Assembly: GCA_964346085.1 (NCBI GenBank)
Contig: CAYFSZ010000002.1
Span: 1 to 46,397 of the forward strand
DNA: 46,397 nt
Source of the DNA: an uncultured Mageeibacillus sp.
Lineage (GTDB): Bacteria > Bacillota > Clostridia > Saccharofermentanales > DTU023
Direction: 5' to 3'
The notes below the pieces were generated by a model, which was given only the letters and a program-made list of their open reading frames with translations, did no database searches and was not told the DNA's origin. A program made the translations under genes and the position numbers. Of the stretch, positions 15,541 through 46,337 are shown piece after piece. Position 1 is the first letter of the stretch. Each line of letters starts with the position of its first letter.

Positions 15541-15643
15541 AATTTATTTTTATTTAACCTCTATTTCAGAAATTCAATATTTATTTATCAGTGTACTAGT
15601 ATACATCAAAAATAAAAATAATATTATTAACTTAATAAAAACT

Positions 15644-16654
15644 TTACTCATTGTCCTTTTGTTCTATATATCGATAACTGTTTCCTATCGTTTCTAATTG
15701 TAAAATCACATTATTATTCTTTGCTATATTTTTCACATTGTCCAAAATTATCTTATTTTTTTCATTGATACCATTCTTAGGAACTACTATTATTAACCGT
15801 CGACTTATGATATCTTCTTCTGAAATCACTGACGGATTAATATTCGTCGGCTTATTACCACCTCGAAAATTAGATAAATCAGTCATTTCTTTCTCAAACT
15901 GTCTTTGCAGTATTTCATTATTCTGATATTGAGGAGCTGTTAAGTCTATACTCCTTATTCCAATCGCCTGGCCATTCTTAAAACCAGAAATCACAGGATA
16001 ATTAAACGGCAAATTTGCATCAAATTTTTCTCTAAAATACTTCCCTCGAACAAAATTATGCTCTTCCCAAATCCCATCTGCTTCTTTTCCATCAGAGACC
16101 GATTCGTCTTTAACTGGTATAAAGTCCGAATCATATTTTGTCCAAAGAGGAATATAACTATAAATAACTCTTTCCTTCTCTGTCCAAGGCGTTTTAATAT
16201 GATAATCCATCTTTAGTCTTAAGGCATAATCACCACTTGTTGAAATTGAAATCTTTCGTTGATCAGAAGGAATCTTAACCTTTAATTGATTTGCTCCGAT
16301 AATTAGCCATTTTTCAACTTTATTCTGAATAAAATCTTGTAAAAGAACAGAACTAGAAATATTCAGCAAATCTTCTTGCAAGGATTTAGGAACCTCTTCA
16401 AGTATTGGTATATTCTCATCAACAAATCCACTTAGATGATCTTGATATAGTGCTTCTGCAAATGGAAATAAAACTGATAGCTCCTTAGCAGTATTATCTA
16501 ATGCATATCTCATGATGACTTCATGCTGAACCGTTAAACTCGCACTTAACATAAAATAACAAATTACCATAATTACAGGAACAATCAAGGCTGCTTCTAA
16601 AACAATGCTCCCGTGTTCAGCATTTGCCTTAACTTTAATGATTCTCATCAACAT
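15644..16654 (-). CDS. hypothetical exported/membrane protein: TadE-like class III signal N-terminus plus a C-terminal PD-(D/E)xK-toxin-like domain
   Basis: 336 aa. N-terminus KANAEHG|SIVLEAALIVPVIMV (Gly, then Glu at +5, then a hydrophobic helix). C-terminal pattern RGKYFREKF..NLPFNYPVISGF.NGQAIGIRSIDL...Y....RRLIIVVP.....ILDNVKNIAKNNNVILQLETI. Starts 18 nt after the upstream stop. Confidence 0.55.
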   Translation of the reverse strand: MLMRIIKVKANAEHGSIVLEAALIVPVIMVICYFMLSASLTVQHEVIMRYALDNTAKELSVLFPFAEALYQDHLSGFVDENIPILEEVPKSLQEDLLNISSSVLLQDFIQNKVEKWLIIGANQLKVKIPSDQRKISISTSGDYALRLKMDYHIKTPWTEKERVIYSYIPLWTKYDSDFIPVKDESVSDGKEADGIWEEHNFVRGKYFREKFDANLPFNYPVISGFKNGQAIGIRSIDLTAPQYQNNEILQRQFEKEMTDLSNFRGGNKPTNINPSVISEEDIISRRLIIVVPKNGINEKNKIILDNVKNIAKNNNVILQLETIGNSYRYIEQKDNE

Positions 16655-16672
16655 TTTTGCGTCACTCCATCC

Positions 16673-18094
16673 TTAATTTTTGCTTATGATATTATCAGAA
16701 AACTCTCTCTGTAAATGAAATGTTTTGTTCTCAAAAGTCGCGTCTAATTGAAAAGCAACAGCAAATTGGCCTGGTATTAATTTACTTCTAATAGTTGTCA
16801 TCCCGCTGAGAAGATTACTTTCGGATTGAAAAAAACTAAGTGCATATAATAAGTCATAATAATTTAGGTTTATAGAAATATTTCCTATCTCGAAAGAAAT
16901 ACTTTTTCCGTCTAATAATGCATTGATATCTTTATTTGTTTCAATTCCCGCATCAATTAAAATTAGAATCATTTTAATTATCGTTGGCGGAATTATCACC
17001 GTCCCCAAACTTACTGTCGCGATTGTTGTACTAATTGAAGTTGCACTTGAAGTGTATGCTGCTTGATGAACTGAATCAGTCATTCGATGAACCAAATGAT
17101 AACAATACCGTAATGCGCTCATCGTTCCTTTCGCAGATTGTAAACCTTTTTCTGGAGATTCTTTACGAAAAATAATTTGTTCTATTTCATTTTTTCTGCC
17201 CGAATTAATCAACTCCGAACAGTGACGTCCATCGGGTGTAGTTAATACCATCATCTCACCGTTTTTTTCGATAGAAGAACATTCAAGTGTATAATAACGA
17301 AAAAGATATTCTGATACCTGAATACGATCTATTAACGGAATCTGATAATTGCCGAGCATAATATCAAATGAAGAAAAAATATTTTGAACTGAATTCGTTG
17401 CTAATGGTTGATCAGCTCCCACCGAACCAGTTGATTCATAGATAGGAATGATTGAATCGGCGGCATCTTCAAGTAAATCTTCAACGATTGCAAACCCAGC
17501 ATCCTGTAATTCCTTTATTTCTGTTTCTGATATCTCTTCTTCTGAACCGCTTTCTTCTTCAGGAGGTTCTGATTGTTCAATCTCATGAATATATTCATCT
17601 TTATTCTCCAAAATGGTCTCAAGATTGTCATTATCAAAATTTAGTTTTTCTTTCATACTGCTAATATTTTCGATGATTTGTGAATAAGCTTCCGTATTTC
17701 TTAAGTGATTATCCATTATCAAGATGGGTGCACGAATGCTCATATGTCTGGTAATTTGCTTCTTCAATTCTTCGTTATCATTTAAGTATCTATCAGCCTT
17801 TATGGTTGATTCTGTATATTTTTCATCACTCAAATAAAGTGCATTCAATTCATCAGACATTGAATTGACTTTTTCTGTATCCGTCCCCCATAACCCAAAA
17901 TCATGCCAAAGTTGCCGATTATAAGAAGCTAGCGTTAAATCCAATTCATTTTCACATTTTCTGATAAAATCAAGCTCAAGTTTATTTGTTTGTGTATCTG
18001 AAAATAATATAAAAAGCAACAACACTGTCACCGGAAATAAGAGTGAAAAAAACAGACTGATATTCCCTTTTTCATCTATTAATTTTTGTTTCAT
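16673..18094 (-). CDS. hypothetical membrane-anchored protein, TadG/DUF5702-like N-terminus
   Basis: 473 aa. N-terminus EKGNISLFFSLLFPVTVLLLFILF followed by LASYNRQLWHDFGLWG. Acidic linker EQSEPPEEESGSEEEISETE. Second hydrophobic segment near the C-terminus (TVIIPPTIIKMILILIDAGI). TAATG stop/start overlap with the upstream gene, with GGAGGA as SD. Confidence 0.55.
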   Translation of the reverse strand: MKQKLIDEKGNISLFFSLLFPVTVLLLFILFSDTQTNKLELDFIRKCENELDLTLASYNRQLWHDFGLWGTDTEKVNSMSDELNALYLSDEKYTESTIKADRYLNDNEELKKQITRHMSIRAPILIMDNHLRNTEAYSQIIENISSMKEKLNFDNDNLETILENKDEYIHEIEQSEPPEEESGSEEEISETEIKELQDAGFAIVEDLLEDAADSIIPIYESTGSVGADQPLATNSVQNIFSSFDIMLGNYQIPLIDRIQVSEYLFRYYTLECSSIEKNGEMMVLTTPDGRHCSELINSGRKNEIEQIIFRKESPEKGLQSAKGTMSALRYCYHLVHRMTDSVHQAAYTSSATSISTTIATVSLGTVIIPPTIIKMILILIDAGIETNKDINALLDGKSISFEIGNISINLNYYDLLYALSFFQSESNLLSGMTTIRSKLIPGQFAVAFQLDATFENKTFHLQREFSDNIISKN

Positions 18095-18366
18095 TATTCC
18101 TCCGATTTGTCCGATACAATTTGTCCAATATCCGTGAATAAAGAGATAATTTCTTGCACTTTCTGTGGATTCGTTTCTAATTTGGTCATTTCATTGTTCT
18201 CAAATGTTTTAAGCAGATGTGCATTTTTCACTAAATCCAACCTATTTTCTGCAATTTGTTTCGTTTGATTTTCAATTCTTATTTGAATTGGATGAACATA
18301 CATAATACCTTGTATAAAAATAACCATAGATAAAGGAACGGCTAACATAGCTTCGATTGATAACAT
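18094..18366 (-). CDS. small TadE-like pseudopilin-like protein
   Basis: Start placed at the ATG at 18366 (MLSIEAMLAVPLSMVIFIQG...), with AGGAGG 7 nt upstream. The longest ORF extends to 18393. Glu at position 5 followed by a hydrophobic helix. Confidence 0.5.
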   Translation of the reverse strand: MLSIEAMLAVPLSMVIFIQGIMYVHPIQIRIENQTKQIAENRLDLVKNAHLLKTFENNEMTKLETNPQKVQEIISLFTDIGQIVSDKSEE

Positions 18367-18449
18367 AAAAAAACCTCCTATCTGCATATACATATTTTAA
18401 ATATCTGCATTGAGGAAATTCGAATTCTTTTTTGGAAAAATGGGAATTT

Positions 18450-18487
18450 TAAGAAAACCCCTTACCAAGTCTAGGTAAAGGGTTTTA
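18450..18487 (-). terminator. rho-independent terminator downstream of pheT
   Basis: 13-bp stem (18454-18466 / 18474-18486) with a 7-nt loop. The single imperfect pair is G-U on the minus-strand RNA but C-A on the plus strand, so the hairpin favours the minus transcript. U-rich 3' side. Confidence 0.7.
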
Positions 18488-22793: not shown

Positions 22794-23183
22794 TTACTTA
22801 ATCAATTCGCGCCAATCAAGATCTCCACGATCAATCGCTAATACTAAAACTTCTGCAGTTGCCACATTTGTGGCAAATGGAATGCTATTCGCATCGCAAG
22901 CTTTTAGTAAAGAGTTCGGAGAATCATACGAACGAAGCATAGGATCTCTCAAATAGATAACAGCATCAATTTCATTGTAATTTGTTTTGGATGCGAGTTG
23001 TTCTACACTTGCCATAATATCAGTTGTTAAAGTTTCAACTTCTAAATCTGTATTTTCGCGAATAGATCGAGAAATATTAAAAAGAGAAATCAAGCGATGT
23101 TTCGATAAGATTTGTCTATAAGCTATACAAAAGTTAACGAGCAAGTCATATTTTCTTGTATCTGCAATTAAAACGATGTTCAC
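22794..23183 (-). CDS. methylglyoxal synthase-like domain protein with non-canonical active site
   Basis: 129 aa, collinear with MgsA (IDAVIYLRDP, IPFATNVATAEVLV). The catalytic His/Asp positions and the phosphate-binding GTTG are replaced. GTG start with AGGAGG 5 nt upstream. Confidence 0.75.
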   Translation of the reverse strand: MNIVLIADTRKYDLLVNFCIAYRQILSKHRLISLFNISRSIRENTDLEVETLTTDIMASVEQLASKTNYNEIDAVIYLRDPMLRSYDSPNSLLKACDANSIPFATNVATAEVLVLAIDRGDLDWRELIK

Positions 23184-23287: not shown

Positions 23288-25489
23288 TTAATTAAACCCA
23301 AAATATTCATCAAGCATTTGTCTTGCAACATCTGGCAATCCACTCTCTATATCAGCATTTTCAACAACGCCTGCGAAAACTACTTCAGGATCATCAGCAG
23401 GCGCATAACAGACGAACATCGCATTAATCTGAATATTCTCACTGGAGCTATTTTGCACTTCTGCTGTACCTGTTTTCATCGCAACAGAAACTGGAAAATC
23501 ATGAAATGCTTCATATGTTCTTGATCCTGGATCGCGAGCTAATCCTTCCATTGCATCTCTAACCATAGAGATTGCCGTTTCAGAAATATTTAAATCTTTT
23601 ACATCAATAACTTCAGGTTTAATAATTTCTCCATTTTCATTCGAGATTTCTTTAATTACGTGAGGTTGAACTAATTGACCCGTTGCAACACCACCAATTC
23701 CTCTTGCTAATTGTACAAGAGTATAAGCATTAAAGGATTGTCCAATCGTCGATTGAGCTGTATCAGCTGGAAACCAGATTTGGTCTTCAGGCAATGCTTG
23801 GGTTTGTCGTTTTAACTCAGGGCTTGGTCTAATCCCTTTTACTTCGCCAGGCAAATCAATATTGGTATATTCTCCCATTCCGAATTTTTTATATGTTTCT
23901 GATAATGCTTCTATTCCTGTATCCAATCCCATCTTAAAGAAATATAAATTACATGAAGTAACCATTGCATCGTGTAATGTTAATGCCCCATGACCATCTT
24001 CTGGTCTTGAGTAGCATTGCCAAACTCTATAGCCAATTTCTTCAGTACCATTGCACAAATAAACTTGATCTTCAGGAGTAATAACTCCATTCTCAATCGC
24101 AGCGATAGAAGAAATCGTTTTAAAAGTCGATGCAGGAGCGTATATTTCAGAAATAGCGCGATTTAACATTGGCTTTGCTTCATTGTCTGAAAAATATTCT
24201 CTAACTCTTTCTTCAGCAGCATCATCATATTGAGCCAAAGAAAAATCTTGTGGATTATAATACGGTACTGACGCCATCGAAATAATTGCTCCAGTCTTAA
24301 CATTCATCATGACTGCACTTGAAGCATTGGGTTTAACATCTTGCTTTTCCTTAATTCTTTCTATATTATTCGACAAAGCCTGAAGAGTTGTTTCTTGCAT
24401 TGATCTATTTAACGTCAAGCGAACTTTATTCCCAACTTGTGGAGAAATTCCTCCGCCACCTTTTACATATTCTAATTCATTATCAGTATTTCGTTGCCAA
24501 TAACCATACGGAATAGAACCTGGAACGCCATGTAAATAGCGCTCAGCATATAACTCAACTCCACTTTTTCCAACTACGTCATTGAAATTGTAAGACAAAT
24601 TTTTCAATTGTTGATATTCCTGCTCAGAGATATTTCCAATGTATCCAAGAACATGAGAAAACAATAAACTGTCTTCTGTATATTGTCTTTGTGATGTATC
24701 GGCTATCAAAACACCCGCATATTTTTGATTTTGTTCGTTAATCGTATTGACAATGGTCTGGTTAACAGGTCCACCGATGCTAATTGCTTCTCCCTGTAAA
24801 AATTGCCAGTTATTTTCCAAGATTAAATATCTCAACTGCATGATTTTAAAGGCTTCTTCCATTGTGTAAATGGTATCACCTGCAGCCTTTATATCTTCAA
24901 TTTGGAATTTATCATAAAGTAAATATTGATAGAAATCATTCGGATTAGTTTTAACTCGTTGCGTAGGATCATTCGTGTCTTCTTCTAATTTCAAACCGAA
25001 TAAATCATTATTCTGTTGCCATCTTTCGATTTCAGAAATATCTTTCTTAAAGACAAACTCCATATTATTATTTGATGGGTTATTTTTTGATTCTAAAGAA
25101 AGATCAAAATACTGTGTTAGGTTATCGGGTAACGTAACTCCATTATTAATCATTAACTCAGATAATTCGAGTAGCATTTCATTCAAAGCACGGTTTGATA
25201 ATCCTGCATTACTTAAATACAACATTGGTCTTGTAATTGAATAAGCTAATGTCTCACCATTAATATCGACAATATCCCCTCTTGGAGCTTGTACTGTCAT
25301 TTGAGCTCGATTACCAACAGTTTCCGGAATTTGATTGACTTGTGTAGAACTCAATTGAAGGATTGAAGTACGCACCAAAATAATCAATAGCATGATGATG
25401 ATAAAGATACCAATAATTGCATATCTCGAAAAACTATCATTGTTTCTGTTATTTCTATCATTAAATTTATTGAAAATTAGAGATTTCAT
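23288..25489 (-). CDS. mrdA: penicillin-binding protein 2 (class B elongation transpeptidase)
   Basis: 733 aa. N-terminal TM anchor. SxxK = STFK, SxN = SCN, KTG = KTGTAE. ATGA overlap with the mreD stop. Confidence 0.92.
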   Translation of the reverse strand: MKSLIFNKFNDRNNRNNDSFSRYAIIGIFIIIMLLIILVRTSILQLSSTQVNQIPETVGNRAQMTVQAPRGDIVDINGETLAYSITRPMLYLSNAGLSNRALNEMLLELSELMINNGVTLPDNLTQYFDLSLESKNNPSNNNMEFVFKKDISEIERWQQNNDLFGLKLEEDTNDPTQRVKTNPNDFYQYLLYDKFQIEDIKAAGDTIYTMEEAFKIMQLRYLILENNWQFLQGEAISIGGPVNQTIVNTINEQNQKYAGVLIADTSQRQYTEDSLLFSHVLGYIGNISEQEYQQLKNLSYNFNDVVGKSGVELYAERYLHGVPGSIPYGYWQRNTDNELEYVKGGGGISPQVGNKVRLTLNRSMQETTLQALSNNIERIKEKQDVKPNASSAVMMNVKTGAIISMASVPYYNPQDFSLAQYDDAAEERVREYFSDNEAKPMLNRAISEIYAPASTFKTISSIAAIENGVITPEDQVYLCNGTEEIGYRVWQCYSRPEDGHGALTLHDAMVTSCNLYFFKMGLDTGIEALSETYKKFGMGEYTNIDLPGEVKGIRPSPELKRQTQALPEDQIWFPADTAQSTIGQSFNAYTLVQLARGIGGVATGQLVQPHVIKEISNENGEIIKPEVIDVKDLNISETAISMVRDAMEGLARDPGSRTYEAFHDFPVSVAMKTGTAEVQNSSSENIQINAMFVCYAPADDPEVVFAGVVENADIESGLPDVARQMLDEYFGFN

Positions 25490-26064
25490 TTAAAACTCTC
25501 CTTACTTCTCAAACGGTCTTCCGCATATACATCTCTCTCTTTTTCTTCATACGGGATCACTTTAAGCATCATATAGCCGATTAAGAAGCTGATACAGGCT
25601 GTCATAATTATTAGAGTTATAAAAGAAAAATCCAAAAATGAAAACACCCTAAGAAAAGAAAAAGGAATTTCAAACTGAATTGATAAATTAATCATATTTA
25701 TAACACTTTCAAGTATTCTAGCAATTACATACACAATAGTGACTTGAGCTGGTAAGAAAATAAGTTTTCGTTGCCATACATTTTGCAAAAAATGATTCGC
25801 AAAAAATGAAGTTATCAAACCAATCAAAACACTCATCCCGAGCAGTGGGGAAAATATCCAATCTCGTAGAATAGATAAAACAACAGTTATCAGGAGATAC
25901 CAATGACCTCCAAATAAAAAAGAGAAGCTCCAAGGCAAAATCAATAATACATCAGGATACTCTTTCAAATTTGGAAAAACCGCTTGAATAATTTGATTCA
26001 GAAAAAGTACGATGACAATATAAAGAACTATTTTAATAATTCGGGAAAAAGAATTTGATTTCAT
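25486..26064 (-). CDS. mreD: rod shape-determining protein MreD
   Basis: 192-aa polytopic membrane protein immediately after mreC (1-nt gap) and overlapping the PBP2 start. Confidence 0.8.
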   Translation of the reverse strand: MKSNSFSRIIKIVLYIVIVLFLNQIIQAVFPNLKEYPDVLLILPWSFSFLFGGHWYLLITVVLSILRDWIFSPLLGMSVLIGLITSFFANHFLQNVWQRKLIFLPAQVTIVYVIARILESVINMINLSIQFEIPFSFLRVFSFLDFSFITLIIMTACISFLIGYMMLKVIPYEEKERDVYAEDRLRSKESFK

Positions 26065-29160: not shown

Positions 29161-29664
29161 TTATTTGCCACAGCACTTTTTATATTTTTTCCCACTACCA
29201 CATGGGCATGGATCATTTCGTCCAATTTTTTCTGATCTAACAATTTTGGACTGTCTCCATTCATAAACCATTTCTTGTTGTTTTTCTGGCTTTATAATTT
29301 CATCCCATGAATCAATTGTGTATAACCAATCTGCTTTTGCTTCATGCATCGCGATAAACAATTTTTCATAATCTATATCTAATTTTAATTCAGATTCATC
29401 ATTTAATTCTTCTAAATTTAATTCTTCTTTCAAACTTCCGTTCAAACCTTCAAGGAAACCAACAAAAATAACCGGCTTATTCTTGAACCCTAATAGTTCT
29501 TGGACTTCTGTGAATTTACCTGAAATTGTTTCCTTATGATTTTCCAAAATTTTCTCATAAGCAGCTGTCTCTAATTGATAATATAATTCTATTTCAGACA
29601 TATTCTTTTGTTGACTTTGTTGATCTTGGAACATTTCGCTCCATTGTTTAAGATATGAACTCAT
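29161..29664 (-). CDS. SEC-C metal-binding motif protein of unknown function
   Basis: 167 aa. C-terminal [18 protein letters not shown]. The N-terminal domain is not recognised. Confidence 0.75.
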
Positions 29665-30814: not shown

Positions 30815-33184
30815 TCACTCTAAATAAGTTGATACTTCCCAAGAATTATTTATTAATTCTAACACAATTGCCCCGTTTTTATCTGTCCTTTTCATTTCAA
30901 TATGATGTTTTTTTAATCTTTCTAACACCTCCTTATTCGGATGTCCATAAAAATTTCGACCTACTGAGATAATTCCTAATGTTGGATTTGTTGCCGACAA
31001 AAACGCATTAGAAGTCGAACCTTTTGAGCCATGATGAGAAATCTTCAAAATATCAGTAAATGATAATTCGGGATTTCTGATTAATTTTTCTTCCACTTTA
31101 TCTGTTATATCCCCTGTAAACAGAATAGATAACCCTTCAATATTTAATCTAAATGTAAAACTCTGATCATTTGAATTTTGATGATATAAATTAAATTTAT
31201 CAGGTGATAAAATTTTCGCATTTAGATTTAATTTGGAAAAGTGAAGAATATCCCCTGCTTTTTTCTCATGGAAAATAATTTGATTATTTTTGATTAATTC
31301 TCTCAACCTAGTTTGCAAATAATCAGAATCTCTTTGCGCATAAAGTATGCCCTCCGGCAGAATCAACTCGTTCACCATGTTCATTTCAAGTAACTCATAA
31401 ACACCTCCACAATGATCAATATCTAAATGACTCAATATTGCATAATCGATTTGAGAGATACCATAATGTTTTAACGCAGGAATGATAACATGATATCCAT
31501 TACCTATATTCCCTCCATCAATAAGTAATGTTCTCTTATCAGGAGAAATAATCAAACAACTATCTCCTTGTCCGACATCTAGAAATATAACTTTCCATTC
31601 GAACTGATACTGCCAAGAAAAAAACGTCAAACATAGGGCGATAATATAGACGATTAATTTTTTATTGACAATATAAAAACTACGATTTTTTAAGGAAATA
31701 GTCTGAAAAAATTTAATCAAGTAAAATATTCCTGAAAAAATTAATATAATCAAAATGATTTGACTCAATACATTTGCGTAATTCATCTGAAACAAACGAT
31801 TTATTTTAGATAATCCTATTTTTTTAATCACAAATAGCAACAATGAATAATATGACTTAATAACAGATTTCAATAGAAATATCTCAAGAGAAAAGATTGC
31901 TGTAAATAAGTAACGAATCATCAATACATAGCCACTCATAAACGCGATACAGAACGGAATCGTCACAATGGTATTTAGTAAAAAAGTAGAAAGAACGGAT
32001 TGATTAAATGTCAGCATGAGAAATGGAAATAAAAGTATTTGCACAATAAAGTTGAGCGCAATTGAGAATAGTATCTTTGATTTAGAAAAAATTTGTATAC
32101 TTTGTAGACGTGGAGAGACGATATAAATTAAAAAGCTTATGCCAAAGCTTAACTGAAATCCTAGTTGTATAGCTAAAAATGGCGATACAAAAAGACAAAT
32201 AAGCATTGCAAGTAACATTGAGTCTTTTTTAGAAATAAAAATATGCTTTTTCAAGGCTAGATTTTGAATAAAAAATTGTAAACTTGCACGTACTAAGCCA
32301 ATCGGATAATCACTAATCCATAAAAACAACAATATTAAAGCAAACATACTCAAAAGCATGGCATTACTTTTCTTTTTCTTTTTGGAAATCAATTTGGTAA
32401 ATGGAAATAGAAACAACTCAAAGTGAAAACCTGAAACAGCCAATACATGTTGTAAGCCTAAGCCAGAAAAAAACTGTTTCCAATCGTCCTTCATAAAATG
32501 CTTCTGTCCAAAGCAAAAGCTTAATATAAAATCTGCTATTTCTTGGTTGAAAGAAAGTTTTAACCATTCATTGAAGCTATTTAAATGCTGTTGTTTAATG
32601 CTATGGACCCGCGACCACTTAGAATATTGCATCTTTGCTTGCACAGGTTTGGCAATTGCAAAACAATTTTGATTTGCAAGAAATTTTGCCTGATTATATC
32701 CTCCAGGATTCCTCGACTCTTGTGGCTTTTCTATTTCAAATTCCCCCTCAATTTTCGATGGCACCATTTCATTTCTGTCAATCCATACTACAAACCTCAT
32801 TCCTGTCTTATCTTGATACATCACGAGGTATTTATTTTTTCCTATTTGAACAATCGATTTTCGAGATAAAGAAAGAAAGATTTTCTGTTCGAAATAATGA
32901 TTCACATTTTGAGCTGCTTCCTGTTTCACAATAATGATTTGCGTAAAAATGATTATTAGGAAAACAAGGATAAAATAAAACCAGCGATTTTTTGCAGATA
33001 ATAGATCGAATGTAAAAATGATTGCTGAAATAAATAATCCAAACATGATATACCATAGCATTAGGTTTTTAATCGCTAACATAATACATACAATCATGAA
33101 AAAACTAGCTTGGACTATACCAAACTTTTTCCAATCAAAAACAAAACTGATAATCCTCTTAAAATATGAAAAGTTCATAAGCAA
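30815..33184 (-). CDS. comEC: DNA internalization competence protein ComEC/Rec2
   Basis: 789 aa. N-terminal OB-like region, polytopic competence domain, C-terminal MBL domain (FLDVGQGDS, HLDIDHCGG, SHHGS). Confidence 0.92.
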   Translation of the reverse strand: MLMNFSYFKRIISFVFDWKKFGIVQASFFMIVCIMLAIKNLMLWYIMFGLFISAIIFTFDLLSAKNRWFYFILVFLIIIFTQIIIVKQEAAQNVNHYFEQKIFLSLSRKSIVQIGKNKYLVMYQDKTGMRFVVWIDRNEMVPSKIEGEFEIEKPQESRNPGGYNQAKFLANQNCFAIAKPVQAKMQYSKWSRVHSIKQQHLNSFNEWLKLSFNQEIADFILSFCFGQKHFMKDDWKQFFSGLGLQHVLAVSGFHFELFLFPFTKLISKKKKKSNAMLLSMFALILLFLWISDYPIGLVRASLQFFIQNLALKKHIFISKKDSMLLAMLICLFVSPFLAIQLGFQLSFGISFLIYIVSPRLQSIQIFSKSKILFSIALNFIVQILLFPFLMLTFNQSVLSTFLLNTIVTIPFCIAFMSGYVLMIRYLFTAIFSLEIFLLKSVIKSYYSLLLFVIKKIGLSKINRLFQMNYANVLSQIILIILIFSGIFYLIKFFQTISLKNRSFYIVNKKLIVYIIALCLTFFSWQYQFEWKVIFLDVGQGDSCLIISPDKRTLLIDGGNIGNGYHVIIPALKHYGISQIDYAILSHLDIDHCGGVYELLEMNMVNELILPEGILYAQRDSDYLQTRLRELIKNNQIIFHEKKAGDILHFSKLNLNAKILSPDKFNLYHQNSNDQSFTFRLNIEGLSILFTGDITDKVEEKLIRNPELSFTDILKISHHGSKGSTSNAFLSATNPTLGIISVGRNFYGHPNKEVLERLKKHHIEMKRTDKNGAIVLELINNSWEVSTYLE

Positions 33185-33914: not shown

Positions 33915-35171
33915 ATGGAAAAACCAAATCAGGATTCTCCAATATCTTCTCAAGCGGAGATGTTGGTACTAAGAAATTATGAAGAAAGAATTTTGAAACC
34001 CATTGCGCCAATTGCAATCATTAGTGCCCAGATGGATTCCGCTTTTTCTGATGCTGTCAATTTCCACTTAAGAAATCGCAGATCAAAAACGATTGAGGAA
34101 TTTCCTGAGCAAAAGGACTTTCCAGGCTATTATCGAGCAGATTATCGTATCGATGTTAACTTAGACCGCTATTCATCAGGTGAAGGACATGCGCGCTTAC
34201 TAGATTCAGTAAGAGGTCATGACCTTTTTATTTTGACTGATGTTTTGAATTATGGTCAATTTTATCAACGATTTAATCAAACAGTCTCGATTAGTCCAGA
34301 TGAACATTTTGAAGATTTATGCCGAATCATTGCAGCTGCTCATGGTGTCGCAAAACGAATCAATGTGATTATGCCTTATTTGTATGAAGGTAGACGTTAT
34401 CGCAGAGCTTATCGAGAATCTTTAGATTGTGCAGTTATGCTGAAACGTTTATTTGAACTCGGAATTGATAATTTCATGACCTTTGATGCACATGATGATC
34501 GAATCGCAAATGCAGTACCGAGAAGAAATTTCGAATCCGTTCAAACTTCTTTACAACTTATTGAGGCATTATTAGAAGATTATGATGATTTAAAAATTGA
34601 TAAAGATAATTTTATGATTGTCAGTGCGGATGAAGCTTCTATCAAACGCTGCATCTATTATGCTTCTCTCATGAAAGTTCCTCTTGGAATTTTCTATCGT
34701 CGATATGATCCTCGTCTACTCGATGAAGGTGAATACACGGCTCAATATTTAAAAACAAATGCCACCAAATTATTCCTTGGTGAAAACATCGAAGGCAAAG
34801 ATATTTTGATTGTTGACGATATGATTGACACTGGTAAAACAGTTCTCGAAGGAGCAGCAATGCTTAAAGCTCAAGGAGCGAAAAGAGTTTTTGTTGCAGT
34901 TTCTTTTGCACAATTCTCAAAAGGATTTGAAAAGTTTAATCAAGCCTATGAAATGGGAACTATCACCAAAGTATTCGCAACGAATTTAGCTTATCGCTCA
35001 CCTGTTTTACTTAATACAAAGTGGTATCGCGATGTTAATTTATCTAAATACTTAGCATTATTGATTGATGGCTATAATCATAATGCTGCATTGACTAATA
35101 TTATTAGCCCAACAACTCGAATCGAAGAATTACTAGACGCATATAAAGGAGATATTCATGGTAAAGAATAA
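33915..35171 (+). CDS. ribose-phosphate pyrophosphokinase family protein, long form, divergent paralog 1
   Basis: 418 aa. Prs N-domain and PRTase domain (INVIMPYLYEGRRYRR, FDAHD, ILIVDDMIDTGKT), with insertions and a C-terminal extension. Confidence 0.8.
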   Translation: MEKPNQDSPISSQAEMLVLRNYEERILKPIAPIAIISAQMDSAFSDAVNFHLRNRRSKTIEEFPEQKDFPGYYRADYRIDVNLDRYSSGEGHARLLDSVRGHDLFILTDVLNYGQFYQRFNQTVSISPDEHFEDLCRIIAAAHGVAKRINVIMPYLYEGRRYRRAYRESLDCAVMLKRLFELGIDNFMTFDAHDDRIANAVPRRNFESVQTSLQLIEALLEDYDDLKIDKDNFMIVSADEASIKRCIYYASLMKVPLGIFYRRYDPRLLDEGEYTAQYLKTNATKLFLGENIEGKDILIVDDMIDTGKTVLEGAAMLKAQGAKRVFVAVSFAQFSKGFEKFNQAYEMGTITKVFATNLAYRSPVLLNTKWYRDVNLSKYLALLIDGYNHNAALTNIISPTTRIEELLDAYKGDIHGKE

Positions 35172-36375
35172 TCACACATTCAATCCGGAAGATAAAGATT
35201 ATTATCGCTACGATCAATATGGTGATAATCCAATGCCGGCAGATGCCCCTGTTGGCATCATCTCATTAATTGGAGCAAAAGATTTCGGAGCGAAAGTGAA
35301 TCAACATTTGATTGATCGACGCAAAGAATATCTTGAAACTTCTATTGAAACAATTAATACCCCAGGTTTTTTAAGAGACGATTATGAAATTAAAGCTGAT
35401 GCAGTCCGTTTTTCCACTGGCGAAGGAAAAGGTGTTTTAAATCAAACAGTTCGTGGACATGATTTATATATAATTTGCGATGTAACAAATTATAGTTGCA
35501 CTTATAAAATGCGCGGATTAACAAATCATTTTAGTCCAGATGATCATTATCAAGACTTAAAGAGAATTATTTTAGCTGCTTCAGGACAAGCTAGAAGAAT
35601 CAATGTCATCATGCCTTTCCTATATGAAAGCCGTCAGCATCGTCGAACTGGTAGAGAATCTTTGGATTGTGCATATATGCTTGAGGATATTTTTGATTTA
35701 GGTATTAGTAACTTCATCACCTTTGATGCGCATGATGATCGTGTCGCCAATGCTGTCCCAACCTCAAGTTTTGAATCAATTCCTTCTACTTATCAGATTT
35801 TAAAAGCGTTAATTCGTTCTATTCCGGATATCAAAATCAATGCTGATTCACTAATGATTGTCAGTCCTGACGAAGGAGCAATTGGAAGATCGATGTATTA
35901 TGCTTCCATGCTAAATGTTCCACTCGGCACATTCTATAAACGCAGGGATTATTCTCAAGTCATTGACGGTAGAAATCCAATTATTGCTCATGAATTCTTA
36001 GGTGACTCTGTTGAAGGTTATGATGTTGTCATCGTTGATGATATGCTTTCTTCCGGAGAATCGATGCTTGATTTAGCCAAATCATTGAAACAAAAAGGTG
36101 CAAATCGTATTATCTGTGCAACAACATTTGGCCTTTTCACAAACGGAATTCAAGAGTTCGACAATTACTATGAAAAAGGATTAATCGATCGAGTGATTGC
36201 TACTAACCTGACATATTTACCAGATGAAGTAAAAAATGCACCTTGGTTTGTTGAGGCTGATATGACCAAATTCGTTGCTTTACTGATAGATGCAATGAAT
36301 CATAATGCTTCTATGGGTAGCTTAATTACACCAACCAATAAGATTAGCAAATTGTTAAATAAACTAAACAAATAA
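35158..36375 (+). CDS. ribose-phosphate pyrophosphokinase family protein, long form, paralog 2
   Basis: 405 aa. RFSTGEG, INVIMPFLYESRQHRR, FDAHD, SPDEGA, YKRRD, VVIVDDMLSSGES. Overlaps paralog 1 by 14 nt. Confidence 0.8.
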   Translation: MVKNNHTFNPEDKDYYRYDQYGDNPMPADAPVGIISLIGAKDFGAKVNQHLIDRRKEYLETSIETINTPGFLRDDYEIKADAVRFSTGEGKGVLNQTVRGHDLYIICDVTNYSCTYKMRGLTNHFSPDDHYQDLKRIILAASGQARRINVIMPFLYESRQHRRTGRESLDCAYMLEDIFDLGISNFITFDAHDDRVANAVPTSSFESIPSTYQILKALIRSIPDIKINADSLMIVSPDEGAIGRSMYYASMLNVPLGTFYKRRDYSQVIDGRNPIIAHEFLGDSVEGYDVVIVDDMLSSGESMLDLAKSLKQKGANRIICATTFGLFTNGIQEFDNYYEKGLIDRVIATNLTYLPDEVKNAPWFVEADMTKFVALLIDAMNHNASMGSLITPTNKISKLLNKLNK

Positions 36376-44145: not shown

Positions 44146-45198
44146 ATGAAAAAAGAAACCTCAATTTTCACGAATGTACTCGCTTTTATTATCACCTTAA
44201 TATTAGCATTAATTCTGCTGTTCGTTATTTTAGGTAATCCATTCTCTGCAAAAAAAAATAATTTCGAAATGTCTTCAGTTACACAAAAAGTATCAAATCT
44301 AGCTGAGTCCAGTTCACAGACAAAAATTGGGCAATCCACATCATCAATCGTAACATCGATGCCAGAAACTGAATCATATCAGGCAAAGTCCTTCTCGACA
44401 ACTCACACTGAGGAAGAAGAAAAAGGAGTTTCCATAGAGCGACTAAATCAGATGGTTACAAATGTCATTGAACCTACTTATGAGAATTTTAATGGAACGG
44501 TTCAAATAGCATTCAAAGAGTTAAATCATGACTTTATGTACTCAAATTATGATGAGAATGTATTTTTATATCCCGCAAGCCTTCCAAAGTTATTTATGAT
44601 GTCCTACATCTATCACTTAGAAGATAAAGGTGTGTTAGAAATCACTGATGAAGTTTTTACTTTGATTGATGGCATGATTGTTTATAGTTATAACCATTCT
44701 TATAATGAGCTTTTGATAATAGCAGCGAATGCTTTGAATGGGAAAAACCCATTTACAGAACTAGACACATTTTTAGATAAATATGGATTTAATGATACAA
44801 TTCTTCACTCCTATTATTCCATTTCAGGTCAATATGAAGTTTTGTTAGCTCCATTCTTAAGTGACTTTACATTTCAGACAACCGTTGATGATATCGCATT
44901 ATTCTACGAACTATTATACAAAGAAAATTTAGTTAGTGCAGAGTCCTCAAAAGCAATGCTTGAAATTCTTGAAAAACAAAGTAGAACTTCAAAAATCCCT
45001 GCTCTATTGCCCGAGCATGTCATTTTTTATAATAAAACAGGAGAACTTGATTATTTTACACATGATAGCGCACTCATTCTTTCTCCTAATGCTGATTATA
45101 TTTTGGTAATCATGACCGCTGCAGAATATGATGCTTATCAAAACGAGTTGGCAATTCAAGAAATTTCCTATAACATATATAACTTTCTCAATCCTTGA
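44146..45198 (+). CDS. membrane-anchored class A beta-lactamase-like serine hydrolase
   Basis: 350 aa. N-terminal TM anchor, Ser/Thr/Glu-rich linker, SxxK = SLPK, SYN in place of SDN, KTG = NKTGE. Confidence 0.7.
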   Translation: MKKETSIFTNVLAFIITLILALILLFVILGNPFSAKKNNFEMSSVTQKVSNLAESSSQTKIGQSTSSIVTSMPETESYQAKSFSTTHTEEEEKGVSIERLNQMVTNVIEPTYENFNGTVQIAFKELNHDFMYSNYDENVFLYPASLPKLFMMSYIYHLEDKGVLEITDEVFTLIDGMIVYSYNHSYNELLIIAANALNGKNPFTELDTFLDKYGFNDTILHSYYSISGQYEVLLAPFLSDFTFQTTVDDIALFYELLYKENLVSAESSKAMLEILEKQSRTSKIPALLPEHVIFYNKTGELDYFTHDSALILSPNADYILVIMTAAEYDAYQNELAIQEISYNIYNFLNP

Positions 45199-45212
45199 TT
45201 GGAGTTTTTTTA

Positions 45213-46337
45213 ATGAATCAAGCATCTTTTTATAAAAAAATATTACTTTGTTTTTTAATTTGCAGTCAATTATTTTTAGTATCATGTCAATCCAGAAAAT
45301 CAACGATCGACTTTTCCAAACAAAACCGAGAAAAGCCAATCGAAACGACTGAAAAAACAGAAAATACCTCCGAAACTTTTCAAGAACCAGAACAGACAAA
45401 CACTTCTGTATACACACTTCCTGCTCGGTCAGATCAAATCGAAGTAACTGTTTCTGAAACATCGATATTGGAAAGCGAGCAATTGAAAAACACTAAAATT
45501 TCAAAAACAGAGTTGCCAGAAAACACCGAAATAAAAGAAACAGAAATTTTGGAATCAGAGAGTTCATCAAGTGATCAAACGAATGTTCAAGCACCTGTAT
45601 CTGATTCTATTAAAAATATTATCGATACTTATATTGCCGAATATCCTGGAATCATGTACGTTTCATTCAAAAATTTGACTTCTGGTCAGGAGTATATTTA
45701 TTCAGAAGAAGCTGTTTATGCTGCTAGCCTATCTAAATTATTTATGATGGGAACAGTTTACGATGCAATTGAAAACGGAATCATCGAATATTCCCCTGCA
45801 GTTGAACAGTACTTGGAAATCATGATAACCATCAGCGACAATAATGCATATAATCAATTTGTCTTCATGCTACAGGAAGCAATTCCTGATCGAAATGTCT
45901 TTTTGCTTTTAGATGAATTTTGCGCAAAATACGGTTTCTCCGACACGATAATTCATAATCTATTGCAATTGCCTGGTGATAGCTATTATCGATATCCAAC
46001 GGACCATGTTCTCGTTACAAGTGCGCGAGATGTCGGACGATTTTTAGATTTAGTATATCGAGGCGAAATGATCAACCCCGAAGTTTCGGAAGAAATGCTT
46101 GGTAGACTTAGAAGACAGCAACGTTTAGGTAAAATTCCAGCACTTCTTCCAGCTGATGCTGTAACCGCAAACAAAACCGGTGAAAGAGATTATTACAGCC
46201 ATGACTCAGCTATTATTGTCAGCCCAAAAGCAGATTATGTACTTGTCGTAATGACAGATGCAGCTCCTGCAGGGGTAATGGGAGATGGCTATATTCAGAG
46301 TTTGTCATTAGATATTTACAACGAATTAAATAAATGA
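45213..46337 (+). CDS. class A beta-lactamase-like serine hydrolase, predicted lipoprotein
   Basis: Start placed at the ATG at 45213 (GGAG 8 nt upstream); the longest ORF starts at a TTG at 45195. Signal peptide with lipobox LVSC. Long Glu/Thr/Ser-rich linker. SxxK = SLSK, SDN, KTG = NKTGE. Confidence 0.75.
   Translation: MNQASFYKKILLCFLICSQLFLVSCQSRKSTIDFSKQNREKPIETTEKTENTSETFQEPEQTNTSVYTLPARSDQIEVTVSETSILESEQLKNTKISKTELPENTEIKETEILESESSSSDQTNVQAPVSDSIKNIIDTYIAEYPGIMYVSFKNLTSGQEYIYSEEAVYAASLSKLFMMGTVYDAIENGIIEYSPAVEQYLEIMITISDNNAYNQFVFMLQEAIPDRNVFLLLDEFCAKYGFSDTIIHNLLQLPGDSYYRYPTDHVLVTSARDVGRFLDLVYRGEMINPEVSEEMLGRLRRQQRLGKIPALLPADAVTANKTGERDYYSHDSAIIVSPKADYVLVVMTDAAPAGVMGDGYIQSLSLDIYNELNK

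Follow-up and report, generated by a model that had tools for sequence, protein, structure and literature searches.

Three pilin-like genes beside secA in an uncultured Mageeibacillus: a candidate pilus-tip module with a head apparently derived from a DNase toxin

What role might a set of pilin-like genes play when it is found in a block of housekeeping genes, with no pilus machinery around it? This question is raised by a stretch of 46,397 nucleotides (nt), referred to here as the window, from an uncultured Mageeibacillus sp. (GenBank assembly GCA_964346085.1, contig CAYFSZ010000002.1, positions 1 to 46,397), in which three consecutive genes, named here g1, g2, and g3, lie on the minus strand between pheST and secA. 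With a probability of roughly 0.6, this trio is the minor-pilin module of a Firmicute Flp1-type Tad pilus, either forming its tip or priming its assembly, which is encoded apart from the assembly machinery. The genes and their principal parts, which are all encoded on the minus strand, are as follows:

18374-18379, minus: AGGAGG ribosome-binding site of g1, 7 nt before its ATG, read from the sequence
18094-18366, minus: g1, an open reading frame (ORF) of 90 amino acids (aa), with the ATG behind the AGGAGG taken as its start
16673-18094, minus: g2, an ORF of 473 aa, DUF5702 protein
16844-17314, minus: DUF5702 core of g2, residues 261-417, the stretch matched in Pfam, with a high predicted local distance difference test (pLDDT) score
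15644-16654, minus: g3, an ORF of 336 aa, predicted TadE-like minor pilin with a toxin-derived head
16610-16654, minus: prepilin-type leader of g3, residues 1-15, MLMRIIKVKANAEHG, net positive, with Gly at -1
16088-16609, minus: pilin body of g3, placed by the model, the profile alignment, and the TadE match
15689-16087, minus: head of g3, residues 190-322, predicted PD-(D/E)xK fold of the EC869/YPIII CdiA-CT DNase type

The stop codon of g1 overlaps the start of g2 (TAATG), and a gap of 18 nt separates g2 from g3. The original prediction, which was made from the letters of the DNA, had described this layout, and the ORFs confirm the lengths, strand, overlap, and gap that it gave, as well as all the N-terminal strings that it quoted.

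Pilin-like features of the three proteins

The N-terminal signals of both g2 and g3 match the published rules for the substrates of the prepilin peptidases (PMC3244431). In g3, a Gly at -1 and a Glu at +5 are combined with a hydrophobic helix, as in a prepilin-type signal. This context had been pointed out in the original prediction, and it is retained in approximately 30 distinct homologs, which have G (~70%), A (~27%), or, in one case, C at -1, and E or D at +5 in all cases. The g2 protein begins with MKQKLIDEKG/NISLFFSLLFPV, where the slash marks the end of the leader (MKQKLIDEKG), with G at -1 and a Phe instead of Glu at +5. In all of the ~22 distinct g2 homologs, G or A is found at -1, and a hydrophobic residue at +5.

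The g2 protein matches the Pfam family DUF5702 (PF18960) with 32.3 bits, against a cut-off of 26, and its homolog in locus L032 reaches 140.8 bits. The expectation that proteins of this type would be annotated as DUF4320 or DUF5702 is borne out by g2 in the case of the latter family, but not in that of DUF4320, for which no match was recovered in g1, g2, or g3 at E <= 1, nor in any of 20 homologs of g1. Both single-chain models have a long N-terminal helix. The AlphaFold model of g2 (pLDDT 79.7) opens with a helix of ~55 residues, and the protein also has an acidic linker and, within the DUF5702 core, a helical hairpin at residues ~350-385, which is moderately hydrophobic according to the hydropathy profile. 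The Foldseek search of the g2 model against the PDB returned no fold match (best E = 0.34). In the g3 model (pLDDT 75.8), the long first helix extends to residue ~70, and is followed by a second helix and a three-stranded sheet (residues 134-169), while the C-terminal domain is separate from this body. A sequence search of the PDB with the full-length g3 provided nothing useful.

The link between the trio and the Tad pili is provided by more distant relatives. The profile built from diverse relatives of g2 led to two DUF5702 proteins, P0041, which is encoded in locus L033 of Anaerocolumna sp. AGMB13020 (complete genome, CP136910), and P0040, which is encoded on a metagenome contig, L034. The two loci share a common gene order, that is, an A24 peptidase, a TadZ-like protein, a T2SSE ATPase, two T2SSF proteins, an Flp1-like pilin, the DUF5702 protein, a TadE-like protein of ~300 aa, and a second A24 peptidase. 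The last gene encodes a small TadE-like protein in L033, and a 118-aa protein with no TadE-like N-terminus in L034. The distant DUF5702 proteins thus adjoin the genes of Flp1, TadA, TadB/C, and A24, in agreement with the earlier statement that the kin of such proteins are normally found beside tad genes. Their N-termini, MRKKESG/VITVFLSL and MLRDHRG/SVTVFLSL, share the signature of g2. In addition, the profile of the g3 family (positions 7-191) aligns with the 312-aa TadE-like protein of Anaerocolumna over ~180 residues (probability 94.5%, E = 8e-8), an alignment that spans both the first helix and the pilin body. Given this shared signature and the alignment of the body, g2 followed by g3 corresponds to the DUF5702/TadE-like pair of the true tad loci, with the head swapped. 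Judged by sequence comparison, g2 and g3 are shown to be homologous to the DUF5702 gene and the TadE-like gene found after that of the Flp1 pilin in the complete clostridial tad loci.

The TadE-like proteins that follow DUF5702 in these two loci (L033:12560-13498 and L034:7046-7921) have a Cys-rich head with repeats of the type G-x-x-YH-x-x-x-x-C-x-x-L, which has no match in Pfam, and would represent another uncharacterised tip head.

The smallest protein of the trio is organized differently. The original prediction attributed a short polar leader and a helix of the TadE/TadG type to each of the three proteins, which is valid for g2 and g3, but not, as far as the leader is concerned, for g1, which has no polar leader at all. 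The N-terminus of g1 has Met1 at the +1 position, Glu5, the motif AxxxVPL, and a single hydrophobic helix, and thus contains the mature-pilin motif x-x-x-x-E-A-A-x-x-x-P-L with its hydrophobic helix. When a profile built from 20 g1 homologs is aligned with that of g3 by hhalign, the two match in register at the mature N-terminus of g3, with a probability of 79% and E = 1.6e-5, which indicates that the Met of g1 is the counterpart of the +1 residue of g3. The Glu is found at position 5 or 6 in g1 and its homologs. All 20 homologs checked have a Shine-Dalgarno sequence 5-9 nt ahead of this ATG, with translation starting at +1 and no leader with a cleavage site. Together, the alignment in register and the position of the Shine-Dalgarno sequences show g1 to be a small TadE-like subunit that is synthesized with no leader.

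Two other identities were considered for g1. The open frame extends beyond the chosen ATG to position 18393, and a longer product with the leader MYMQIGG was rejected because the Glu would fall at +7, the homologs do not conserve the additional upstream stretch, and it is the inner ATG that is preceded by the ribosome-binding site. A major pilin of the Flp or Flp1-like type was also rejected, given the lack of an Flp motif and of any match to the Flp and Flp1_like hidden Markov models (HMMs). No Pfam match was found for g1 or for its 20 homologs, and NCBIfam assigned no family to g1, g2, or g3. An identical 90-aa product of g1 is already on record.

In some lineages, the g1 homolog is longer, with 150-180 aa (L005:6278-6724, L024:7865-8401, L025:7997-8476, and L030:7927-8376). 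The additional length consists of a proline-rich tail with PALP or PGLP repeats, of a kind that often spans the Gram-positive cell wall, and which is absent from the g1 of the window.

The head of g3 and its catalytic sites

The view of g3 as a pseudopilin is consistent with its N-terminus and body, but the C-terminal third of the protein, which was overlooked in the original prediction, has a different origin. This head matches the Pfam family CDI_toxin_EC869_like (PF21111) with 28.2 bits, against a cut-off of 27, and the same match is found in 24 of 33 relatives. The Foldseek search of the g3 model recovered the toxin structures 4g6u_A and 4zqu_A with a probability of 1.0, including a template modelling (TM) score of 0.72 on 4zqu_A, and the profile of the g3 head matches 4zqu_A with E = 1e-5.

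The catalytic residues of the toxin are E177, D198, S209, and K211, together with Zn (PMC9086364). In the g3 of the window, Arg208 replaces the Glu, Ser223 replaces the Asp, and Gly232-x-Arg234 is found in the place of Ser-x-Lys. The residues at these sites were counted in 121 representatives of the g3 family and in 25 toxin-type domains:

E177 position: Arg in 108/121 (89%) of the g3 family, and never Glu; Glu in 20/25 toxin-type domains
D198 position: Ala, Ser, or Cys in 109/121 (90%) of the g3 family, and Asp in 4/121; Asp in 25/25 toxin-type domains
S209 position: Ser in 52/121 of the g3 family; Ser in 25/25 toxin-type domains
K211 position: Lys in 71/121 and Arg in 41/121 of the g3 family; Lys in 25/25 toxin-type domains

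A scan of metagenomes also returned the C-termini of Rhs/YD-repeat toxins (1,300-2,100 aa), together with some smaller carriers, at 27-39% identity to the head of g3. The toxin alignment reads RG-x-x-[IFA]-E...NLP...FP[VT][IV]D...ATSIKSIDLTA, and it is the Glu of this alignment that is replaced by Arg in the g3 family, and the Asp by Ala, Ser, or Cys. Given the replacement of these catalytic acids, the head is predicted to be a non-catalytic derivative, and the residue counts show a DNase-toxin domain that, by its alignment, has lost its catalytic acids.

Soil and sediment metagenomes contain many Rhs/YD-repeat proteins (L082-L119, for example, L083:5252-10384 and L114:5408-10384) that end in a version of the g3 head with an intact site, which reads RG..IE..NLP..FPVID..SIKSIDLTA. 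In L087, a full toxin is followed by a second, orphan-like copy of its C-terminal part.

Conservation of the locus and its genomic setting

The searches for homologs based on a word index badly undercounted the family, with only 15-21 matches. At E <= 1e-30, the exhaustive profile search recovered 213 cluster representatives, a number that rises to 942 at E <= 1e-10, and most of these share the same architecture of 300-370 aa. The loci examined here include 23 from GTDB species genomes, ~45 from metagenomes, and nine obtained by direct look-up. The GTDB loci are all from metagenome-assembled genomes (MAGs) labelled Mageeibacillus, Saccharofermentans, Saccharofermentanales, or Clostridiaceae, and the closest relative among the available data is a MAG of an uncultured Mageeibacillus (53% for g3, 80% for secA, and 89% for pheS).

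In ~70 loci, with identities that fall to ~25%, the trio immediately precedes secA, in a conserved block with the order radC-mreCD-PBP2-mgsA-MBL-(pheST)-trio-secA-(PNP-AdoHcy hydrolase-amidohydrolase). The gene upstream of the trio varies, and may be pheT, the MBL hydrolase, or dtd. No secA is found beside the trio in L009, L028, L032, and L039, and one sublineage (L032 and L039) has the order PBP5-trio-PNP. Overall, the trio is retained at 23-53% identity across ~75 loci, which points to purifying selection, and its recurrence in so many loci of other genomes and metagenomes indicates that the ORFs are not the product of chance. These data identify the trio as a core locus that is inherited vertically in a large lineage of Clostridia, and it stands alone, as originally claimed for the window, both there and in every relative examined. 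The possibility that the homologs would always be found in complete tad loci, with the present copy being no more than a translocated fragment, had been raised from the outset. This was not seen, and a recent translocation was rejected given that the locus is syntenic across the lineage.

The two flanks of the trio in the window are as follows:

18454-18486, minus: hairpin of the pheT terminator, 13 bp, -18 kcal/mol, z = -3.4 by folding, which sets the trio apart from pheST
15541-15643, minus: spacer between g3 and secA, 103 nt, with no terminator-like structure

The placement of the trio between the pheT terminator and secA was therefore correct. The scan that counted promoter-like sites overlooked the pheT hairpin, which was confirmed by folding. 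No hairpin was found in the spacer between g3 and secA, and given this lack of a terminator-like structure, read-through from g3 into secA is possible.

The absence of pilus machinery from the 46-kb window, which was also part of the original prediction, is supported by tblastn searches with TadA, TadB, TadC, TadZ, A24 peptidase, and Flp queries from two real tad loci, in which the best match had E = 0.06. Two Flp1-like pilins used as tblastn queries had no match in the window. According to the ORFs and Pfam, the other genes are housekeeping genes, including mutY, a P-type ATPase, sbcCD, an amylase, secA, pheST, mgsA, PBP2, mreCD, and radC, in addition to asnS, holA, comEC, engB, two prs genes, nagB, ruvABC, and others. 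The comEC gene (30815-33184) is 12.4 kb from the trio, close to the 12 kb first given.

In the window, PADLOC returned no match for the trio, the search for tandem repeats found none, and promoter-like sites were no more frequent than expected from shuffled sequences (20 vs. 17.1 +/- 4.3). Across the 46 kb, no match to any Rfam family attained the gathering score, including the stretches that precede pheS and asnS, a common place for T-box leaders in Firmicutes. The literature search recovered nothing on DUF5702, DUF4320, Mageeibacillus in combination with pilus, or Saccharofermentanales in combination with pili.

A number of other features of the window are also worth recording. At 33915-36375, two overlapping neighbouring genes (418 and 405 aa) both encode proteins similar to ribose-phosphate pyrophosphokinase with long N-terminal extensions, forming a tandem pair of paralogs. 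The products of the neighbouring genes at 44146-46337 (350 and 380 aa) are exported members of the Beta-lactamase2 family, whose signal anchors are followed by linkers rich in Ser, Thr, and Glu. A 167-aa protein (29161-29664), which has little beyond a C-terminal SEC-C motif, is encoded between holA and asnS, and this gene keeps the same position in distant relatives (L006). The genes at the mreD position (25486-26064) and the mgsA position (22794-23183) have no Pfam match at E <= 0.01, and are named here by position and synteny only.

Competing explanations and known systems

If the trio is a minor-pilin module, g2 and g3 would be inserted in the membrane with the N-terminus inside and the C-terminus outside, and would then be cleaved after the G or A by an A24 prepilin peptidase encoded elsewhere, while g1 would need no cleavage. 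The first helices of the three proteins would bundle as a heterotrimer, which would prime the assembly of the filament by the TadA/TadB/TadC machine and cap its tip, while the nuclease-dead g3 head would act as an exposed binding module. The cap pseudopilins of the type II secretion system (T2SS), such as GspK, lack Glu5, and the lack of this residue in g2 suggests that it would be the top subunit. A precedent for such an arrangement is found in the Kil Tad pili of Myxococcus, in which minor pilins with variable heads are encoded in three-gene "Tip" clusters. Three of these clusters are located away from the machinery, and the authors of that study proposed that TadE/F/G form tips of this type in general (PMC12075869). 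Some Gram-positive tad loci contain no pilin gene at all (PMC3244431).

A number of observations weigh against this reading. TadA, TadB, TadC, TadZ, A24, and Flp were not found within 10 kb of any of the ~75 loci, and the near-universal adjacency of secA, with no intervening terminator, might reflect a distinct role linked to Sec. Against the TadE model (PF07811), the g3 of the window (residues 15-56) scores 19.5 bits, below the cut-off of 22.9, and the homolog in L032 reaches 28.0 bits; among 33 diverse relatives, just four match TadE at E <= 1e-3. The second hydrophobic stretch of g2 could hold this protein in the membrane. To our knowledge, there is no characterised pilin that lacks a leader, and g1 has none.

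Most of these points would also fit a relic module that is independent of any machinery, in which the three products are signal-anchored envelope proteins, possibly co-expressed with SecA, and the pilin helices serve as anchors only. The permanence of the trio directly upstream of secA, while the gene on its other side changes, would be consistent with this explanation, as would the Ala in place of Gly at -1 in about a quarter of the g3 homologs. A plain anchor leaves the conserved -1 (G/A) and +5 (E/D) positions unexplained, however, and the adjacency of secA may reflect inherited gene order rather than function, given that the whole neighbourhood is syntenic and that four loci have no secA beside the trio. 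This explanation is considered somewhat improbable. A role as accessory Sec (Asp-like) proteins was rejected, as there is no similarity and the secA found here is the housekeeping gene.

A related proposal is that the whole Clostridia lineage keeps this pilin-derived trio, with its leaderless pilin and domesticated nuclease-dead toxin domain, working with no dedicated Tad machine. The trio would then be either an envelope complex linked to Sec or a tip that binds DNA and is lent to some other type IV filament, in which case it would be a first candidate for a DNA receptor in Gram-positive uptake. This, too, seems unlikely.

A special case of the minor-pilin module would be a DNA receptor for natural transformation, in which the trio tips a Tad or Com filament, and the g3 head binds extracellular DNA for uptake by ComEC. 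The head derives from a DNase toxin domain whose fold has been retained, together with the Ser-x-Lys strand in most relatives, but whose metal-binding acids have been lost. This would be consistent with such a function, as would the presence of comEC in the window. Micrococcus luteus is transformed through Flp/Tad pili, and the com pili have no known DNA receptor (PMC6370729). The head is acidic (pI 5.9), however, its binding role is only a prediction, and the g3 of the window carries Gly-x-Arg instead of Ser-x-Lys. In addition, comEC is widespread in non-competent bacteria, and this explanation is considered to be quite improbable.

A contact-dependent toxin system, with g3 as an active nuclease effector and g1 and g2 as delivery or immunity factors, would be in line with the above-cut-off match to CDI_toxin_EC869_like and the 27-39% identity with the Rhs/YD-repeat C-termini, but it is hardly credible, and an active g3 toxin was rejected, given the loss of the catalytic residues (Glu in 0/121, compared with toxin-type domains that always keep the Asp, Ser, and Lys), a next gene that is secA rather than a candidate for immunity, a pilin-like body in the place of a delivery domain upstream of the head, vertical inheritance at a fixed core locus, unlike the polymorphic toxins, and the lack of a PADLOC match.

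If the trio is indeed a minor-pilin module, DUF5702 would gain a working role, as a large, Glu5-less minor pilin of the Firmicute Tad pili, and the detached clusters of tip genes, which have been reported so far from Myxococcus, would also exist in Gram-positive bacteria, as a fixed core locus. The g3 protein would represent the exaptation of a toxin, in which the DNase domain of a polymorphic toxin has become a non-catalytic pilus head, through substitutions that map to the catalytic residues. The g1 protein would be pilin-like and yet have no need for a prepilin peptidase. If the g3 head does bind DNA, it would be a candidate for the missing DNA receptor of the Gram-positive uptake filaments.

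The closest known systems are the clostridial Flp1-type tad loci, such as that of Anaerocolumna sp. AGMB13020, which share with the trio the order of DUF5702 followed by a TadE-like gene, a DUF5702 protein homologous to g2 with the same N-terminal signature, a TadE-like protein homologous to the g3 body, and the presence of a small TadE-like protein. In contrast with these loci, the three genes of the trio are found alone beside secA. The DUF5702 proteins of the tad loci are also larger (662-807 aa), the head of their TadE-like protein is Cys-rich rather than EC869-like, and the small TadE-like protein of Anaerocolumna has a leader (MKKKLEG/NYTLE), whereas g1 has none.

The TadE, TadF, and TadG proteins of Aggregatibacter actinomycetemcomitans resemble the trio in having a positive leader that ends in a small residue at -1, with the TadE-like member carrying Glu at +5 and the TadG-like member lacking Glu5, and also in the expected cleavage by a peptidase of the TadV type. 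The trio differs in its weak match to the TadE HMM and lack of a match to the Tad_N/TadG model, in its unrelated domains beyond the first helix, and in its location outside a tad locus.

The head of g3 shares its fold with the CdiA-CT DNases of Escherichia coli TA271/EC869o11 (4G6U) and Yersinia pseudotuberculosis YPIII (4ZQU), and related Rhs toxins. It has the motifs RG, NLP, and S-x-D-(L)-T in common with these toxins, in addition to the identity with the Rhs-borne copies noted above. Unlike the toxins, the g3 head lacks the catalytic Glu and, in most of the family, the Asp, and it is fused to a pilin-like body rather than a delivery domain, with no immunity gene.

Finally, the Kil Tips of Myxococcus xanthus (KilL/KilM/KilN; Herrou et al. 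2025, PMC12075869) differ from the trio, which is known from its sequence only, in that the latter belongs to a Gram-positive host, has no demonstrated sequence relationship with KilL/M/N and no identified machinery, and combines a DUF5702 protein as the large subunit with a leaderless smallest subunit and a head formed by a dead DNase-toxin domain. In both systems, three adjacent genes encode small, medium, and large pilin-like proteins with N-terminal helices of the TadE/F/G type, one subunit bears a variable exposed head, and the clusters can be located away from the genes of the machinery.

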